The notes under the pieces are model-generated. The model saw only the letters and a list, made by a program, of their open reading frames with translations. It was not told the origin of the DNA and did no database searches. Below, piece by piece: positions 4,122-54,023 of a stretch of DNA of 64,000 nt. Source of the DNA: an uncultured bacterium (GTDB taxonomy: Bacteria; Patescibacteriota; Microgenomatia; UBA1400; UBA12108); contig CAXCDZ010000001.1 of NCBI GenBank assembly GCA_963981525.1, positions 11,217 to 75,216 of the forward strand. The letters are read 5' to 3'. The position numbers and the translations under genes were made by a program. Every line of letters starts with the position of its first letter. Within the stretch, counting starts at the first letter, position 1.

Positions 4122-4921
4122 AAGAACTTTCTTTTTAAGTGTTTTACCGGAGTAATGAGAGAGGCCAAGAGCTCATAAGTGAAGGAGCGTTTGATAGATG
4201 GGTCAGGGATAATATTGGGCCGAGGGAGGGAGAAAATCTCGGGGAGAGGTGTGGTAATCGGGAGCCCTTTCTCGACTTTGTATTTGTGACGGTGAAGCAC
4301 ACTCTTAAGATTGGCACCAGCACTAGAACGCTTGAGATACATGGCGTGGTGAAGATAGTTGTTGGTAATATACCAATTCTGAGGAGCGCGCTCACGCGTA
4401 CTAACACCATCTTGGTCAAAAAACCCTTCGAGTGGATAATCACCTTGGTAGTGGAGACCCTGGATCTTATCCCTGTTAACTAGGCGAGTCACGAGATGCC
4501 CATGCTGCCCGAACAGACTATACTCGCCAATAGAATCTTGCTGATGATGATAAATGTCACCAAGGAGGTCGTAGCGCCTGACTACTATTCCCTCGAATTT
4601 ATCAGAATTGACTTGCCCAACAATCTCTTTGGCTAGGTGAGTGGAGTAGATCTCGTCACCATCGATTAGCCAAATCCAGGGGTTCTTGGACTCCTGAATC
4701 TGAGCTTGCCTAACTGCAGTGAGCTCCTTGGGAGTAGAGATCTTGATGGTAGTCAGGTTAATCTTGGGATCCTTAATGCTCCTGATAATCTCAAGTGTGT
4801 GGTCGGTGCTGCCAGTATCCGTAATTAGCAATGTATCAACGTAGGGCAAAATAGAGTTAATAGCAAACCAGATCCACTGATCCTCATTTTTGACCACCAT
4901 GTGGGCGGCAATAGAGGTCAC
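4118..4921 (-). CDS. Glycosyltransferase family 2-like protein
   Basis: 'IAAHMVVKNEDQWIWFAINSILPYVDTLLITDTGSTDHT' and 'LIDGDE'. GT2-like N-terminal fold. Confidence 0.6.
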   Translation of the reverse strand: MTSIAAHMVVKNEDQWIWFAINSILPYVDTLLITDTGSTDHTLEIIRSIKDPKINLTTIKISTPKELTAVRQAQIQESKNPWIWLIDGDEIYSTHLAKEIVGQVNSDKFEGIVVRRYDLLGDIYHHQQDSIGEYSLFGQHGHLVTRLVNRDKIQGLHYQGDYPLEGFFDQDGVSTRERAPQNWYITNNYLHHAMYLKRSSAGANLKSVLHRHKYKVEKGLPITTPLPEIFSLPRPNIIPDPSIKRSFTYELLASLITPVKHLKRKFL

Positions 4922-5598: not shown

Positions 5599-5611
5599 AG
5601 GCTCATTATAT

Positions 5612-6943
5612 TCAATTATCGTGAGATTTTCTGTAGAGAAAAGTTTGTGAGTCTATCTCCTCGTGGAGGACGTAGTAGTTATCTATGTAGTTAAGAATAA
5701 GTTGGGGAGCTGAGTTGCTACCTAAAAGAATATATACTGGCTGAGAATCAAGTAGCTTGGAGACTGTTAACTCCTGCACCCCGGGATAGTCATAATAGAG
5801 AGGAGTGCTGGGATAGATAAAGTCTATATTGGGATACTTGTTGATCAGGTAGTACCAATGATCCCAGGAGTTGGTGGTAAAAATCGTCTCATCTCCTACA
5901 ATGTTTGTAATGTGCTGTGACTCAGAAATAATTGTCTGCTCGATGAATCTAGGAGGAAGGGCGCGGTAGTCATGATAATATTCCAAAAACACTAGTAGGC
6001 TAGTTATGGAGAGAATGGTAATAATTAGGCGCCTGCAAGTGATGATCTTGATATTAGTTAGTAGTAAAAATAACAGGAGTAAAAGGAAGTTGAGCGATGG
6101 CAAGACATGAAAAAGCTCGAACCTAGGCCAGATTCCAATTAGAGAAAATAGATACCACACCATTAACTCTCGATGCTGACGTGGGATCTTGGAAGATTTT
6201 TGCCTCTGGGCAAAGAATGAGACTGCTAACATAACGATGGGAAGCAGAAAGAGAATAAGTTGGTTGAGCTGGGGTAGTTGTCTCTGGCCAGAATGACTAG
6301 CCATATGCTGAATTGGAAATAATAGGTTTTGCTGGACTGCAGTTAACCAACTCTCTGTTGGGATCATTAGTAGGTATCCAGCAATAGCCAAGAAACCACT
6401 AAGGAGTATAAATCGAAGAAATTGTCTTGAGCTATTTAGTGAGTACATTATGGGAATTAGCATAACTACTGCAGTTTGTTTGGTAAGAATCGCGAAAGAG
6501 AAGAAGATTGAGGCAAGTAGTAGTCGACCACGATAGATCATACTGTAGGTAATAAACAACAAGGGTGTTAAGAGGTGGTCAAACCACAAGCCATTTGCTT
6601 CGTACCTAATCTGCCAGATGATGAGAAGAAAGGAGACAAATATAAGCAACTTGAGTGAAGAGTGCCTTTTGCGAAGCTCTGTGACGAATAGTGACAAATT
6701 GAACAGTAGCACTGCTGTTGTAATTAACTGAAGCATAGTCACGTCCCAATGATTTGAGGAAACTAAAGAAAGAATTGAAAGCAAGAGAGGTGGGTAGACA
6801 ACAAAGATGTTGGAATAGTATGCAAATCCACCTTGGTGCAGATATGGCCAAACTAACATCTCTGGCCAAGCCGTAAATTGAGTGCTATATAGCAAAACCG
6901 TGAAGATGGCCGACAATAATATTAGGGGCTTGTGCCTTGTCAT
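5612..6943 (-). CDS. Uncharacterised polytopic membrane protein (possible GT-C-like transferase or polymerase)
   Basis: ~10 predicted hydrophobic helices and a C-terminal soluble domain. No recognisable catalytic motif. Confidence 0.4.
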   Translation of the reverse strand: MTRHKPLILLSAIFTVLLYSTQFTAWPEMLVWPYLHQGGFAYYSNIFVVYPPLLLSILSLVSSNHWDVTMLQLITTAVLLFNLSLFVTELRKRHSSLKLLIFVSFLLIIWQIRYEANGLWFDHLLTPLLFITYSMIYRGRLLLASIFFSFAILTKQTAVVMLIPIMYSLNSSRQFLRFILLSGFLAIAGYLLMIPTESWLTAVQQNLLFPIQHMASHSGQRQLPQLNQLILFLLPIVMLAVSFFAQRQKSSKIPRQHRELMVWYLFSLIGIWPRFELFHVLPSLNFLLLLLFLLLTNIKIITCRRLIITILSITSLLVFLEYYHDYRALPPRFIEQTIISESQHITNIVGDETIFTTNSWDHWYYLINKYPNIDFIYPSTPLYYDYPGVQELTVSKLLDSQPVYILLGSNSAPQLILNYIDNYYVLHEEIDSQTFLYRKSHDN

Positions 6944-8229
6944 TAACTTTTTGATGGAGAAAAGTGTTCTTGATATGATTTCTTCGCAAAGAGAAGGGTG
7001 AAGATGAGAATGGCTAGTCTAGTGATAATCCTGGCATAACCTGCCCCAATAAGACCAAATGGTGGGATCAAAACTACATCAGAAATAAGGAGGACTATGG
7101 TACTCAAGATACCCGAGATTGCAAAATAGGTTGGCTTGTTGAATAGGTAAAACAATGCAACAAAAGGAGAAGTTGCAGTAAGAAGAGCGGTCGAAATGAA
7201 AAGTAGGTTCAGAGGGGCAACGGCATCAAGATATTCTAGTCCGACAGTGTAATAGATGGCGGGGTAGCTCAATAAGGTCAGGAGCATAATTCCAACCAGA
7301 GAAATTACCCCAATAAGGTAAGCTTTTTTTAGATATGCTTGTAAGTGATGCTTACTTTTGTAGGAGGCAACTCGCACGTTGAGAACTGAACCGAGAGACC
7401 AACCAATTAGGCTAGCGACTGTAGCGATCCTCACGGCAGCTGACCAGAGACCTGTTTCATGACTTGAAAGATAGTTCTGCACTATGATGACGTCGATATT
7501 GTCGGCAATGGTAGCTGAGATAATTGCGATGCTGGTCCATTTGGCAACGGAGATAATTTTTTGCGCTCTATTCTTATCTAGAACGGGTTTGAAATATGTT
7601 AGTGGTAACTTGACAAACCCGGCAATTCCTCCTGCAAGTGGCATCAAGAGATAGACGAGAGTTAGAGGGCCTAGAGCTATGCCAACTGACATAAAAATAA
7701 CTGCATAAAGAAACTTGCCAATTGATTGGATAAAATTGGTCAGGACTGAGTAAGTGAAAAGCCCTCTTCCCTGCAGGATCACGTTAATATATTCGTAAAA
7801 TATCACTGCACCTGAGAGCAAAAATACCCACCTTACCAGATAGTAGTACTGTTCAAGCTGAAGAACTCTGATACCTATCCATTTGCTGGCAATTATCCCA
7901 AATACCATAAGTGCCACAGTCAAAGCTAGTTTGAGGACAAGGCCTGTTTGAATCGTTTCTTTGACAAAGGTGGGATTATCTTTGTGTTGAGATATTTCTC
8001 TCTGAACAGCGATGTTAACTCCAAAGTCACCAACTTTTGAGAGAATAAGTAATAAAGAGAATAGAACTGAGAATATTCCGAACATTTCTGGCCCGAGGGA
8101 GCGAGAGAAGATAATCATTGCGACCGCAGAAATAGCAGTGGCGGTTATGTTACCTGCCATCATCATCGTGGCTGAGCGAACCCCTTCAGATCTAATAGTT
8201 TGGAGTGCAAGTTTTCGGATTCTATCCAT
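6943..8229 (-). CDS. Wzx-like oligo/polysaccharide flippase (MOP superfamily)
   Basis: N-terminus 'LALQTIRSEGVRSATMMMAGNITATAISAVAMIIFSRSLGPEMFGIFSV' is typical of polysaccharide biosynthesis protein (Wzx). 12-14 TM. Confidence 0.75.
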   Translation of the reverse strand: MDRIRKLALQTIRSEGVRSATMMMAGNITATAISAVAMIIFSRSLGPEMFGIFSVLFSLLLILSKVGDFGVNIAVQREISQHKDNPTFVKETIQTGLVLKLALTVALMVFGIIASKWIGIRVLQLEQYYYLVRWVFLLSGAVIFYEYINVILQGRGLFTYSVLTNFIQSIGKFLYAVIFMSVGIALGPLTLVYLLMPLAGGIAGFVKLPLTYFKPVLDKNRAQKIISVAKWTSIAIISATIADNIDVIIVQNYLSSHETGLWSAAVRIATVASLIGWSLGSVLNVRVASYKSKHHLQAYLKKAYLIGVISLVGIMLLTLLSYPAIYYTVGLEYLDAVAPLNLLFISTALLTATSPFVALFYLFNKPTYFAISGILSTIVLLISDVVLIPPFGLIGAGYARIITRLAILIFTLLFAKKSYQEHFSPSKS

Positions 8230-8250
8230 GGACTCATTATAGACCAGTTA

Positions 8251-8868
8251 TTACTTGAACTGGGTCAAGAATCCCCAGATCCTCTCCCACATAGAAGGTT
8301 CGGCGCTGGCTGGGACAGAGCTCGGGGTAACGTCGAGCGGGTTGTAGGCCAGAACATCCTCGACAGAGAGAGTGTTGTTAAGATTGTGATAGATCCCGAT
8401 CACGACAACTGGCTTCTCGACCAGGCGATGAGATGAGTCAAAATCAGTGTCATACTCCAACATATAGACGTCACTGGTGGGGAGAACAAGAATGTCATGA
8501 GATTCGCTAGCAACTCTTACTTCGTGGATCATGCCGAGCTTGCTCATGGGCTGGTTGACTCCCCTGCCCTGCCAGAGTCTGTATCCTAGATAGATCACGA
8601 GCGGGAGAACTAGGAGAGGAATCGTGAACTTGATATTGATGACAGTGTTTTGGCTTTTCCAGATCCTCTTGAGTGCGAGCCACAGACGACCAATGGGATT
8701 ATTGATCCGCAGGTTTACGTCCAGTAAGGGATCTTCTAGGTTCTCAGATTTGGTGACGTCAACGTCGATTGCGTGTACTCCATTGATTGAGACAGATCTC
8801 CCCACCTTCTTCTTACTCTCGCTTGCGCGCTCTGCAATATCAACAATGTCTTTTGCCATTACTATCAA
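8251..8868 (-). CDS. Hypothetical protein with a single TM segment
   Basis: ORF only. One hydrophobic segment (IPLLVLPLVIYLGY). No motif recognised. Confidence 0.35.
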   Translation of the reverse strand: MIVMAKDIVDIAERASESKKKVGRSVSINGVHAIDVDVTKSENLEDPLLDVNLRINNPIGRLWLALKRIWKSQNTVINIKFTIPLLVLPLVIYLGYRLWQGRGVNQPMSKLGMIHEVRVASESHDILVLPTSDVYMLEYDTDFDSSHRLVEKPVVVIGIYHNLNNTLSVEDVLAYNPLDVTPSSVPASAEPSMWERIWGFLTQFK

Positions 8869-8877
8869 TGTACCAAA

Positions 8878-9828
8878 TTAGCGGGAATTGTCTAGTTGTG
8901 TCATTCTAGTTTGACGAGGAGGATTTGATGAGTCCCTCAATGATTGGATGTAGTGCAGTGAAGCTGTAACAATGCTCATGTATTGAATATGCCTTTTGTC
9001 ATCCATAGCTGGATTATCTACCTCATTATCTGTTTGAATGCCGGGATGTCGATAGGGAATGGTAACGCTGCCGACTTTTTTGCCTTCATGGAGTGCACGA
9101 ATAATAGGGAAGAAGGTTGCACTATTGTATGCGCCAGTATTTACATGCGAATGAAAATCCGCAGCCGCACCAGAGCTTGCCTCAAACTGATATCGACCCA
9201 TAAAGTATGGCAGAAATTCCTTGCGAAAGATTCGTGGTCCAAACCAAGCATCAAGATCCGGGTCGTTAGGAGGGAGAAGATCACTTATTCTCAAAAGATG
9301 ATTAAAGCGAGTATTGGCTCTCGTTTCGTAAGCAACCTGAGCAGCCGGATATGTAGAAAAACTCTCTTCATCTCTGGCGGGGACAACCAGATCACAACCC
9401 TCCTTGAGCATGGCCTGCGTAGCTTGCCAAAGACAGGTTGGAGTGAGAAAACTAATCTTCTCTGGCTCAGACCAAGCGATGATCTTAACCTGATCTAATT
9501 CTGCTGCAGCTTGGAAAGCCTCTTGACGAGCAGGGTCCATTCCTCTTTCTTTTTGAGTAAGAACTTGGACATCCAGCTCATTAAGAGCGGATCGAAAATC
9601 ACTACCCTCGTCCCCACCATCAACAACTAGTGTTGAGTGTCCCAGCTCTTGAGATTGAGTGAGTAACTGTAGAGCTAGATCACCACGGATTTTGTCTGTG
9701 TGATCTGGACTGTTGAGATCACCTGAATACCAATCTGGATAAAAGGTGGTTGTGACTACTGCCAAAGATTCTGGGTGTCGTGCGAGCTCACAATTTGCCA
9801 AATCTGGGTGTAACTCTTGTTTAGTCAT
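8878..9828 (-). CDS. Hypothetical protein, possibly nucleotide-diphospho-sugar-transferase-like; visibly higher GC than neighbours
   Basis: 316-aa ORF. 'LVVDGGDEGSD' acidic cluster. Composition differs from flanking genes. Confidence 0.35.
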   Translation of the reverse strand: MTKQELHPDLANCELARHPESLAVVTTTFYPDWYSGDLNSPDHTDKIRGDLALQLLTQSQELGHSTLVVDGGDEGSDFRSALNELDVQVLTQKERGMDPARQEAFQAAAELDQVKIIAWSEPEKISFLTPTCLWQATQAMLKEGCDLVVPARDEESFSTYPAAQVAYETRANTRFNHLLRISDLLPPNDPDLDAWFGPRIFRKEFLPYFMGRYQFEASSGAAADFHSHVNTGAYNSATFFPIIRALHEGKKVGSVTIPYRHPGIQTDNEVDNPAMDDKRHIQYMSIVTASLHYIQSLRDSSNPPRQTRMTQLDNSR

Positions 9829-10094
9829 GTGAGTATATTATTAACTTCCAGCTCTTCTGCGTCGAACACACGTCCTTGTTCGATTTTTTCTAACGCACCT
9901 ATTGCGAATATGGCGATAAGCATAAGAGGTGTTAAATACTTTGCTTCTGTACCTGGGTCGACAACATCAAAAAGAGGCAATAATAATATTCCTGCTATAT
10001 ATGCACCCGTAAATTCACTCATGCGAGTTCCTACCCATGAACGTATTTCAAGCCGTTTTTTATGCTCTTCTAAACTATTCTCTTTGGTAAACAT
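9825..10094 (-). CDS. Small membrane protein (2 TM)
   Basis: 89-aa ORF with two hydrophobic helices. Start overlaps the stop of the upstream gene by 4 bp. Confidence 0.35.
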   Translation of the reverse strand: MFTKENSLEEHKKRLEIRSWVGTRMSEFTGAYIAGILLLPLFDVVDPGTEAKYLTPLMLIAIFAIGALEKIEQGRVFDAEELEVNNILT

Positions 10095-10131
10095 ATGGGT
10101 ATTATATAGTGAGGCCTATAGTAATTCAAGG

Positions 10132-10425
10132 CTAAACAAATCTGATCTGGAGAGTCTTACCTAATGCCCTGGCGATGCGATCAACGAGCTGGATTGAAGG
10201 ACTAACACTCATAGATTCGATCCGGGAGATCACGGCCTGAGTAGTACCTGCAAGCTTTGCTAATTCCTGTTGTGTTAGATTGTTAGCAATACGCGCGCTA
10301 ATAAGCTGTCTTCCCACTTGATATTCAGTCTCACTGTTTTGCCACTCCTCTTCAAATTTGGGAGATTTGCGTAGCCTAGCAATTGTGCGATCTAGATCGT
10401 CCTGTTTTTTATTCATAATTTGCAT
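10132..10425 (-). CDS. higA: XRE-family helix-turn-helix antitoxin (HigA-like)
   Basis: 'ISARIANNLTQQELAKLAGTTQAVISRIE' is a canonical HTH_XRE. Lies immediately downstream of a Gp49/HigB-like toxin gene. Confidence 0.7.
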   Translation of the reverse strand: MQIMNKKQDDLDRTIARLRKSPKFEEEWQNSETEYQVGRQLISARIANNLTQQELAKLAGTTQAVISRIESMSVSPSIQLVDRIARALGKTLQIRFV

Positions 10426-10447
10426 TATATCTGATTAGATATAAATG

Positions 10448-10768
10448 TCAAGTGATCTTTGTTAACTGCTTTTGCCCAAACACTAGATCTTTTCTGCTAG
10501 TTGATCTGCTAGTTTTGCGAAAAATATGCAAGATATAAACTATACTTTTCTTTTGATAAACAAAAATCCTGGTATTATGCTTACCAAGAATACGCACTTC
10601 CCAATAATCATATCCACGCATTTTTTTAAGATCACGAATAGCTGGACTAACTCCATACTCTTGCAAGTATTGGAGTTTGCGAGCTATCTTACGTTGCTCT
10701 GCCACAGAAACCTTGTCCAAATACCCATCTAGATCAATTAGATAATCTATCTGATAACTCATGCTCAA
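10448..10768 (-). CDS. higB: Type II toxin, RelE/HigB (phage Gp49-like, DUF891) family
   Basis: 'WEVRILGKHNTRIFVYQKKSIVYILHIFRKTSRSTSRKDLVFGQKQL' matches the Gp49-like killer-protein signature. Toxin-upstream/XRE-antitoxin-downstream order is typical of HigBA. Confidence 0.65.
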   Translation of the reverse strand: MSMSYQIDYLIDLDGYLDKVSVAEQRKIARKLQYLQEYGVSPAIRDLKKMRGYDYWEVRILGKHNTRIFVYQKKSIVYILHIFRKTSRSTSRKDLVFGQKQLTKIT

Positions 10769-10822
10769 TCCTTTCTCACTAATCCATTACTAACTCCAGT
10801 ATTACCCATATACTACCCGAAG

Positions 10823-11953
10823 TCAAGTATTGCAAGAAAACTTAGAAATCACATATGACATGATGATGTACATGCTTGGCAAGATTGGCATGAGGTAACG
10901 AGGGAAGACGAGACGGAGAGAGATAAATGTGAGATAAACGATGATCCAGGTGAAGTGAAGGAGAATTGTTCTGTTGGCTCGAAGACGTTTCTGAAAGAGT
11001 GAGGTGAAAGTTGCAAGAAGTGAGAGAGGCCAGAGCAGGCTCCAGCCGGGAGCTGGAATAAGTCCGTGATCTCCATACCACTCACGCCACTGACCAGTTA
11101 GGACTATGCGAAAGATCTCTCCTTTGGGATATTCTGGTACGTATGAGTGGTAGAGCCTGAGAATACTAACGTGAAGCTCCACAAAGTCGACTATGCTATG
11201 ACCACGAACAAAAAACATGATGTAACCAGCTAGATAAGTTAGCAGACTGATATATGAGAGTTTGATGAATCTGATAATCTTCTGTCTATCTGAAACATAG
11301 AGATAGATAAGGGAAGAGATTGCTAGAACTAGAGCAACAGAGAATGACTTGGAGAGTGCGATGAGTGCCAGAATGACCATACTGAGCCTGGGCCGAGTGG
11401 AAAAAATGTAGAGATAAAGAGCGATGAGAGTAGTCTGGATGAGGTCGAGGTAGGGACGCACAAGCTGCTCCCGAACGAGTTGATCAGATACTAAGAGTAG
11501 TGGGGAAGCGAGAGACCACCACCTACTCATGAGGCGGCGAGAAGTAAGATATGTAAGAAGAAGGAGAGAGGCAAATGATAGGTACTGAACTAGCATGGGA
11601 CTGCCAAACAATAGTGTGGAGAGACCAAAAAGATATTTCCCGAGTGGTTGAGTCTCTGGATTGATGCTTGTTGGGTCTGAGCCTTGGATGTATTCGTACC
11701 CGGCGAGAGTATAGAGATCGGAATCGCTAATATTCCCATCGAATATACCTTCCTGATTGCAATACGTCCGATATGTGGAAATCATCTTATCCCAGCCATG
11801 TTGAGCTCGATAGTCTGGCAGGCAATATTGAGAAAATGAATATTTCTCTTGAAGATGAGAGACGTTGAGTTTGTTTAGATAATAAGATGCGCCAAGCATG
11901 AACGTGAGAGTAAGAAAGGCGGCAAATATTACCTTGAGTTTGCTATTAGACAT
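10823..11953 (-). CDS. Polytopic membrane protein, probable GT-C (PMT_2-like, degenerate DE loop)
   Basis: 'NPETQPLGKYLFGLS' resembles the PMT/ArnT 'KPPLGYWL' loop. Multi-TM. Confidence 0.45.
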   Translation of the reverse strand: MSNSKLKVIFAAFLTLTFMLGASYYLNKLNVSHLQEKYSFSQYCLPDYRAQHGWDKMISTYRTYCNQEGIFDGNISDSDLYTLAGYEYIQGSDPTSINPETQPLGKYLFGLSTLLFGSPMLVQYLSFASLLLLTYLTSRRLMSRWWSLASPLLLVSDQLVREQLVRPYLDLIQTTLIALYLYIFSTRPRLSMVILALIALSKSFSVALVLAISSLIYLYVSDRQKIIRFIKLSYISLLTYLAGYIMFFVRGHSIVDFVELHVSILRLYHSYVPEYPKGEIFRIVLTGQWREWYGDHGLIPAPGWSLLWPLSLLATFTSLFQKRLRANRTILLHFTWIIVYLTFISLRLVFPRYLMPILPSMYIIMSYVISKFSCNT

Positions 11954-54005: not shown

Positions 54006-54023
54006 AGCTAGATTATAACAAGG

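Follow-up and report, generated by a model that had tools for sequence, protein, structure and literature searches.

Close known relatives of the toxin-antitoxin (TA) pair described here are presumably the higBA systems of plasmid Rts1 and Pseudomonas aeruginosa. In the latter, higA has a separate promoter, HigA represses the main operon promoter ahead of higB too, and its repression extends to genes beyond its own (PMC12552656). In the HigBA system of Streptococcus pneumoniae (PDB 6AF3/6AF4; Kang et al., FEBS J 2020, PMC7984235) the toxin gene precedes the antitoxin gene, the promoter ahead of higB contains four operator palindromes, and the putative active-site residues of the toxin (SpHigB) are D61, E66, R68, R73, F90 and K92, among which mutagenesis singled out R68, R73, F90 and K92. 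Here we analyze a higBA-like pair in a 64,000-nucleotide (nt) stretch, hereafter the window, of contig CAXCDZ010000001.1 from an uncultured, ultra-small bacterium of the candidate phyla radiation (CPR; GTDB lineage Patescibacteriota, Microgenomatia, UBA1400, UBA12108). An original prediction, made from the letters of the window alone, had suggested that this pair and three hypothetical genes may form a single inserted islet at 8251-10768 within a glycosylation operon. We think it probable that the pair is instead an ancient resident of a conserved glycan-cluster backbone, with its operator in the antitoxin promoter, and that the other three genes are not its cargo. The module would have entered the backbone formed by a 376-amino acid (aa) membrane protein, a "205-aa" protein and a Wzx flippase of a Microgenomates glycan cluster long ago and then have been inherited with it, co-diverging with the 205-aa gene and repeatedly losing its toxin, with the orphaned antitoxin decaying thereafter at least sometimes.

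All five predicted open reading frames (ORFs) are present on the minus strand at the coordinates originally proposed. The TA pair and its candidate control elements are as follows:

10448..10762, minus strand: higB-like toxin gene, 104 aa from ATG 10762 (106 aa from TTG at 10768)
10132..10416, minus strand: higA-like XRE/HTH_3 antitoxin gene, 94 aa from ATG 10416 (97 aa from ATG at 10425)
10424..10451, minus strand: predicted antitoxin promoter TTGACA-N16-TATAAT, 12/12 consensus, its -35 box containing the toxin stop TGA (10450-10448)
10425..10444, no strand assigned: candidate operator palindrome TTATATCT-aatc-AGATATAA (8+8 nt; as a 20-bp duplex, TTATATCTAATCAGATATAA), covering the promoter spacer and -10 box
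10798..10826, minus strand: weak promoter-like TTGACT-N17-AATACT, 9/12 consensus, overlapping the stop of the 376-aa gene; possible toxin promoter
10769..10774, minus strand: Shine-Dalgarno-like AAAGGA, 6 nt ahead of the toxin ATG

The starts given here for the toxin and antitoxin, and below for the 205-aa gene (ATG 8859, 202 aa), are revisions, made because the same starts are called on at least 105 public assemblies carrying the identical toxin and the alignments of homologues agree with them. The 54-bp gap at 10769-10822 upstream of the toxin, as first described, holds for the TTG start only. More than 100 public assemblies carry both ORFs intact and without sequence differences, and the whole block is 99.98-100% identical among six aligned assemblies that carry the identical toxin.

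The assignment of the pair to HigB (Gp49) and HigA (XRE) is borne out by sequence and profile comparisons. The toxin matches Pfam Gp49 (PF05973) with 40.3 bits, above the cut-off of 23.9 (E=3.4e-10), and PHROG 2523 (E=6e-10), and a profile built from 20 family toxins retrieves the S. pneumoniae toxin (6af3_A, E=1.5e-8). In the HMMER alignment E55, R57, R65, F81 and K83 of the window's toxin correspond to E66, R68, R73, F90 and K92 of SpHigB and are invariant in the 20 family members; the conservation of a counterpart of D61 in this family is not clear. The window's toxin has all 11 of the 11 family-invariant residues. It has no specific model in NCBIfam, where only generic helix-turn-helix (HTH) matches were obtained. 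We predict that it is a Gp49/HigB-type endoribonuclease of the RelE superfamily, which, by analogy with other HigB toxins, would be ribosome-dependent. The antitoxin matches HTH_3 (E=2.7e-14), and a profile of 35 family members retrieves the S. pneumoniae antitoxin (6af3_B, E=5.3e-9), so that the toxin and antitoxin profiles each find one of the two chains of the 6AF3 complex. The recognition helix, TTQAVISRIE, is invariant in the 35 homologues. The two genes lie on the same strand, toxin first and 31 nt apart, and the toxin-then-antitoxin pairing recurs in about 60 loci of the family. The likeness to the S. pneumoniae system thus extends to detectable homology of both proteins, the gene order, an XRE-type antitoxin of similar size (here 94-97 aa) and the conserved active site, whereas sequence identity is low and the window's toxin is shorter at its N-terminus. 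The pair is accordingly a genuine type II HigBA module of functional appearance, with predicted activity; as a TA module it is real but ordinary, and leaves the basic picture of TA biology unchanged.

Its regulatory layout differs from those of the described systems. The original prediction had pointed to 10769-10822, upstream of the toxin, as the place for an operator, but this interval contains no inverted repeat of 6 nt or more, and the conserved palindrome lies instead between the toxin and antitoxin genes. The promoter at this site is the only perfect sigma-70 sequence of the form TTGACA-N16-TATAAT in the 64 kb (0.05 expected), the palindrome over it also occurs once in the window, and the antitoxin ATG stands 7 nt past the -10 box. 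Among 62 non-redundant antitoxin upstream regions of the family, 59 have a TTGAC[ATC] -35 box and 51 have the palindrome core ATATC-N3-8-GATAT at the same place, and the core was found in none of 34 regions upstream of toxin genes. The family-wide design can be summarized as TTGAC(A/T), then (T)GATATCT-N4-AGATATCA, then 6-8 nt and the ATG. The invariance of the recognition helix fits the conservation of the palindrome half-site. The palindrome over the -10 box is thus a likely site for a dimeric antitoxin, whose binding there would result in autorepression. The usual higBA feature of a palindromic operator upstream of the toxin, controlling both genes, is absent here; we regard this as a regulatory variant within the HigBA family and no ground for excluding the pair from it. 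In S. pneumoniae the palindromes precede higB, while here the single one follows the toxin gene. A separate antitoxin promoter is shared with P. aeruginosa, but there the promoter upstream of higB is HigA-repressed as well, whereas here the intergenic promoter carries the only operator; further differences are the consensus-perfect antitoxin promoter, an apparently leaderless mRNA and the CPR host.

The geometry of the -10 box and ATG suggests that the antitoxin mRNA, made from a sigma-70 promoter of its own in the 31-nt spacer, is probably leaderless. The toxin has no operator of its own; its transcripts would probably arise by read-through of the glycan gene before it or start from the weak promoter-like sequence at 10798-10826, which is kept in L023 and L110 despite the deletion of the toxin there (L numbers denote related loci). 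Phage lambda cI, transcribed from P_RM, is a familiar XRE-family repressor with a leaderless mRNA whose own promoter is overlapped by an operator, and its regulation is both positive and negative, through three operators. We offer it as an analogy only: lambda cI is not part of a TA system, and no homology is claimed beyond the HTH fold. An alternative role of the palindrome as an RNA hairpin or terminator was rejected: the predicted hairpin is weak (-7.4 kcal/mol, z -1.8), no T-run follows it, and the sequence is conserved beyond pairing. In L026 (3885-3925, and likewise in L027-L029) an operator unit, ATATCGAATAAG, is tandemly duplicated before the antitoxin, in a lineage with a frameshifted toxin; L031, a close relative of L026, has this unit in a single copy. 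A public scaffold (L114, about 4330-4346, equivalent to window 10428-10429) has a run of N exactly at the palindrome, from which it appears that assemblers stumble at the inverted repeat.

To place the pair in its genomic context we collected related loci from homologues of the 316-aa, antitoxin and 205-aa proteins and from a metagenome scan with an antitoxin alignment (80 loci, the best of 405 matches), and mapped the proteins of the window onto them by tblastn. The genes around the TA pair, with the two flanks, are:

9825..10094, minus strand: 89-aa ORFan containing two hydrophobic stretches and joined to the 316-aa gene by a stop/start overlap (ATGA)
8878..9828, minus strand: predicted 316-aa GT-A-fold glycosyltransferase-like enzyme of a divergent GT2-like family, with invariant E121-P-E123-K
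8251..8859, minus strand: "205-aa" gene, from ATG 8859 a conserved membrane protein of 202 aa with a single membrane pass and an OB-like beta-barrel at the C-terminus
6943..8229, minus strand: Wzx-type flippase, downstream flank (Polysacc_synt, E=2.8e-19)
10823..11953, minus strand: 376-aa polytopic membrane protein, upstream flank, syntenic in relatives

A recurring backbone emerged, with an epimerase, a DUF2142 protein, the 376-aa protein, a variable slot, Wzx, a methyltransferase, GT2, GT1 and GT2 glycosyltransferases and a second methyltransferase. The slot is occupied as follows, T standing for toxin, A for antitoxin and numbers for the 89-, 316- and 205-aa genes:

Window: T, A, 89, 316, 205
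L023, L024, L030, L110 and L112: A, 205
L025: A, 205, plus a toxin remnant ATGAGTTATCAA (MSYQ)
L026-L029, L031, L033 and L121: 205, frameshifted T, A
L032, L034, L040, L042 and L063: 205, T, A
L043: 205, frameshifted T, A
L003 and L066: 316, 205, T, A
L096: 205, A
L001, L119 and L120: 205, no TA pair
L002: 316, 205; the contig ends there

The 205-aa gene stands between the 376-aa homologue and Wzx in most of the related clusters that were examined. Thirteen related cluster lineages have the TA pair or only its antitoxin, in every case next to the 205-aa gene; one antitoxin subclade has it on the left of that gene, the other on the right. In its four nearest lineages the 316-aa gene immediately precedes the 205-aa gene, and one of the four (L001) has no TA pair.

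The history of the pair can be followed through the antitoxin. At most of the 80 antitoxin loci (49-62% identity) the toxin is intact, about 112 aa long, and the genomic surroundings are unrelated to the cluster; taken as a whole the HigBA family is dispersed, which is to be expected of TA modules. In a neighbor-joining tree all cluster-linked antitoxins nevertheless fall in one region, together with a few members of unknown or non-cluster context. Within it the loci with the order 205-T-A form one subclade (bootstrap 76%) and those with the order T-A-...-205, including the window, L023 and L025, another (58%). Between cluster loci, antitoxin identity correlates with that of the 205-aa protein (r=0.69 for 45 pairs that are not mutually independent). 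The grouping in the tree and this correlation fit one or two old insertions followed by co-inheritance. Hence the part of the original prediction that spoke of an insertion appears to stand for the TA pair by itself, which is missing from L001, L119 and L120 and varies in position; given that the cluster-linked antitoxins group together and co-diverge with the 205-aa gene, this insertion seems to be ancient.

Of the 13 cluster lineages, 7 retain an intact toxin; another 2 have it with a frameshift, and in 4 the gene has been deleted, leaving remnants. In L023 and L110 both spacers that formerly flanked it are retained and now joined. Toxin loss in 6 of 13 lineages weakens the suggestion that the pair guards the locus against loss. 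The orphan antitoxin of L023 is about 81% identical to that of the window, with a ratio of nonsynonymous to synonymous substitution rates (dN/dS) of about 0.09 at a dS near saturation; for most comparisons dN/dS was unusable due to saturated synonymous sites. The L110 antitoxin shares only 63% identity with that of the window, whereas the adjacent 205-aa protein shares 87%. The antitoxin of L111 (5221-5560, compared with L110 5647-5952) is frameshifted in one of three near-identical assemblies by the change of a poly-A run from A8 to A7, which could be real decay, phase variation or an assembly error. Outside the cluster, L035-L037 and L100, which are related to the window's antitoxin subclade, carry a toxin that lacks residues from about 51 to 75 and has a change of frame, the intact version being found in L039; this deletion appears to be another independent event of toxin decay. 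Also outside the cluster, L057 (about 4270-4300) and L085 (about 2050-2080) have a tRNA-like 3' end (GGTTCGAGTCC...) within about 110 nt upstream of the toxin, and, a tRNA 3' end being a classic integration site, this would be consistent with mobility of the family away from the glycan cluster. We read the cluster-linked series as the slow decay of a selfish or neutral resident, with antitoxin domestication as a minority possibility.

In light of these observations it is extremely improbable that the five genes at 8251-10768 form one horizontally inserted foreign islet stabilized by the TA module. The absence of the TA pair from some related clusters, the absence of the 89- and 316-aa genes from the closest relatives (L023, L110) and the low guanine-plus-cytosine (GC) content of the toxin (35.5%) and the 89-aa ORF (38.1%) speak for such an islet, but the synteny contradicts it: the 205-aa gene is present in most related clusters with the TA pair on either side of it, the 316-aa gene adjoins it in the TA-free L001 and in L002 (where the contig ends before any TA gene is visible), and the presence of the TA pair does not coincide with that of the 316- and 89-aa genes. 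Nor does the composition of the block deviate coherently; it differs gene by gene, with GC z-scores of -2.2 for the toxin, +0.1 for the antitoxin, -1.45 for the 89-aa ORF, +0.6 for the 316-aa gene and +1.75 for the 205-aa gene. No integrase or transposase was found among the ORFs and no repeats flank the block; scans of the 64-kb window for Rfam families and tRNAs found nothing, and it thus contains no tRNA integration site. Conversely, it is very unlikely that the pair is already an inactive relic whose decay is merely pending in this genome. Toxin loss is frequent in sister lineages, and the toxin of the window is some 8 residues shorter at the N-terminus, with T at position 84, where at least 90% of the family have K; yet both ORFs are intact, every invariant toxin residue is in place, promoter and operator are perfect, and the sequence is shared without change by the many assemblies mentioned above. 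Variable surface-glycan loci are typical sites for defense genes, and the pair could be envisaged as an abortive-infection system beside genes for a surface glycan that is a likely phage receptor. Gp49-family proteins and XRE regulators are common in phages, as the PHROG matches reflect, and the antitoxin weakly matches the defense-associated HTH models capH and HTH_VI. However, neither a specific PADLOC match nor a defense-system assignment in PHROGs was obtained for the toxin, the neighborhood contains no other defense genes, and the frequent loss of the toxin along with the clonal stability of the locus shows no sign of an arms race, all of which makes a role in phage defense a rather improbable one.

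A further rival is domestication, in which the HigA-like protein would be the transcriptional regulator of this part of the cluster and its autoregulated promoter would drive the downstream glycan genes, with the toxin as an optional modulator coupling glycan-gene transcription to growth. The antitoxin ORF, with its promoter and operator, outlasts the toxin in the L023 group, L096 and L110, the dN/dS between the window and L023 is about 0.09, and the antitoxin gene invariably precedes Wzx or the 205-aa gene on the same strand. In the 205-T-A subclade the toxin ATG lies 4-14 nt past the stop of the 205-aa gene, and the wider reach of HigA in P. aeruginosa offers a precedent. Against this, the operator occurs only once in 64 kb and is lost in L025; a separate -10 box immediately precedes the ATG of Wzx, of the 89-aa ORF and of the 205-aa gene; the antitoxin of L110 evolves about four times faster than the 205-aa protein, and that of L111 is frameshifted; and TA-free clusters exist while most family members are in unrelated contexts. 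We consider domestication unlikely. A bolder version, to which we assign a low probability, makes this HigBA subfamily a built-in control element of the CPR surface-glycan cluster: the toxin, with no operator, would be made only as a by-product of upstream glycan-gene transcription, and in one subclade appears translationally coupled to the 205-aa gene, while the antitoxin would be supplied separately from its autorepressed, leaderless promoter. If true, the toxin-to-antitoxin ratio, and hence growth, would report or limit the expression of the cluster, and the retained orphan antitoxins would serve as its regulators. Several observations also weigh against the ancient resident that we prefer. 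The antitoxin ORF with its operator and promoter persists in all 13 of 13 cluster lineages, the toxin-less ones included, and this persistence, with the dN/dS noted above, suggests that the antitoxin could have a role beyond neutralizing the toxin. In the close subclade of the window, the L023 group, L025 and the L110 group, only the window has an intact toxin; this 104-aa protein and those of two relatives are without the 8 or so N-terminal residues of most family members, so that full toxin activity is not guaranteed. Finally, the bootstrap values are moderate and come from a 97-aa protein, the pairs behind the correlation are not independent, and the metagenome loci, as best matches, are no random sample. 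On balance the ancient resident still appears to be the probable explanation. Its points of interest are modest. One is a natural series of TA ageing at a single syntenic site, from an intact pair, by way of a frameshifted toxin and then a toxin deletion that has left footprints, to an orphan antitoxin that evolves fast or is frameshifted. The other is a regulatory scheme, open to testing, for a large HigBA family of the CPR, with the operator only in an antitoxin-specific intergenic promoter and an apparently leaderless mRNA.

The comparisons also correct the annotation of this recurrent stretch of the Microgenomates glycan cluster, in that two "hypothetical" genes, the 316- and 205-aa ones, emerge as cluster components; the original statement that none of the genes looks related to glycosylation was mistaken for the former, and the latter belongs to the cluster as well. 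The 316-aa protein itself has no Pfam match and none in a search of PDB sequences, but 14 of its 30 homologues match Glycos_transf_2 (PF00535; best E=1.9e-6), and a fold search assigns it the GT-A (nucleotide-diphospho-sugar transferase) fold. All members have the E-P-E-K motif after a strand at 116-119, where the DXD of GT-A enzymes is expected, and by this position it may be an ExE variant. Compared with Pyrococcus furiosus Dol-P-Man synthase (DPMS; 5MLZ), GpgS, MpgS, MGS, ArnC and GtrB it shows only 10-15% identity, and unlike DPMS, GtrB and ArnC it has no transmembrane helices. The family is small (about 31 clusters) and is seen in Patescibacteria and DPANN archaea; members from Woesearchaeota and Nanoarchaeia (L014-L018, L020 and L022) are 27-31% identical, and the family has no Pfam model of its own. 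A scan of species-representative genomes with a 10-sequence alignment of the family recovered no relative above 44% identity. We predict that the 316-aa gene encodes an accessory GT-A glycosyltransferase-like enzyme of the cluster, which might be a polyprenyl-phosphate sugar synthase feeding the neighboring GT-C-type enzymes. Its supposedly higher GC content is marginal (45.2% against a gene mean of 43.1%); the GC-rich gene of the block is the 205-aa one (49.0%, and 60% at third codon positions, GC3).

The 205-aa protein belongs to an unusually well conserved family of at least 263 homologues (59-87% identity), which occur in Woesebacteria and Collierbacteria and are not covered by any Pfam family. 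The protein has a single transmembrane segment, and residues 100-172, the C-terminal beta-barrel, are modeled with a pLDDT of about 90; a fold search with this model gave weak, generic matches to OB folds. It is best regarded as a conserved membrane component of the glycan cluster. We considered a role as dedicated partner of the 316-aa protein and rejected it, as the two families differ in size (at least 263 against about 31 members) and the 205-aa gene is usually found without the other. The 89-aa ORF matches no family, has no tblastn match in any related locus, and an exhaustive phmmer search over 1.84 billion representatives returned only the ORF itself. Its GC3 of 27.8% is the lowest, and its codon usage (z -3.7) the most atypical, in the window, and it appears to be a lineage-specific orphan of doubtful coding status.

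Several of these genes have predicted promoters with the same geometry as that of the antitoxin:

10101..10129, minus strand: promoter-like TTGAAT-N17-TATAAT, 10/12 consensus, 6 nt ahead of the ATG of the 89-aa ORF
8867..8894, minus strand: promoter-like TAGACA-N16-TACATT, 7 nt ahead of ATG 8859 of the 205-aa gene
8230-8250, minus strand: putative Wzx promoter with a TATAAT box 6 nt ahead of the ATG

The -35 part of the first can be aligned to the 205-aa promoter of L023 and L110, and the TACATT-N7-ATG of the second is nearly identical in these two loci. Taking the 55 long ORFs of the window, a TATAAT-like hexamer (at least 5/6 matches) ends 6-8 nt before the start of 12, Wzx among them, where about 1.9 would be expected for a comparable offset window, further examples being at 5599-5611 and 54006-54023; a Shine-Dalgarno-like motif, even loosely defined, precedes only 13, including the toxin. 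These counts suggest that leaderless transcription is widespread in this organism, with numerous promoters inside the "operon".

As to the flanks, Wzx was correctly recognized, while the GT-C identity proposed for the gene on the other side was not confirmed: the 376-aa protein has eight or more hydrophobic stretches and neither a Pfam match nor a PDB sequence match. Its homologues (45-60% identity) occupy the same position in L002, L023-L031 and L121, and the genes next upstream are PMT_2- and DUF2142-like. Nearly all of the window is a one-directional array of glycan-related genes, with many polytopic PMT_2/DUF2142-like proteins, GT2 and GT1 glycosyltransferases and methyltransferases. Between the window and L023 the antitoxin is about 81-82% identical, the 205-aa protein 82% and the 376-aa protein 60%, and Wzx (6943-8229 against L023 4623-5882) only 40%, while the Wzx proteins of L023 and L025 are 62% identical to each other. 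The cluster thus appears to be a mosaic in which a recombination breakpoint separates the 205-aa gene from Wzx.

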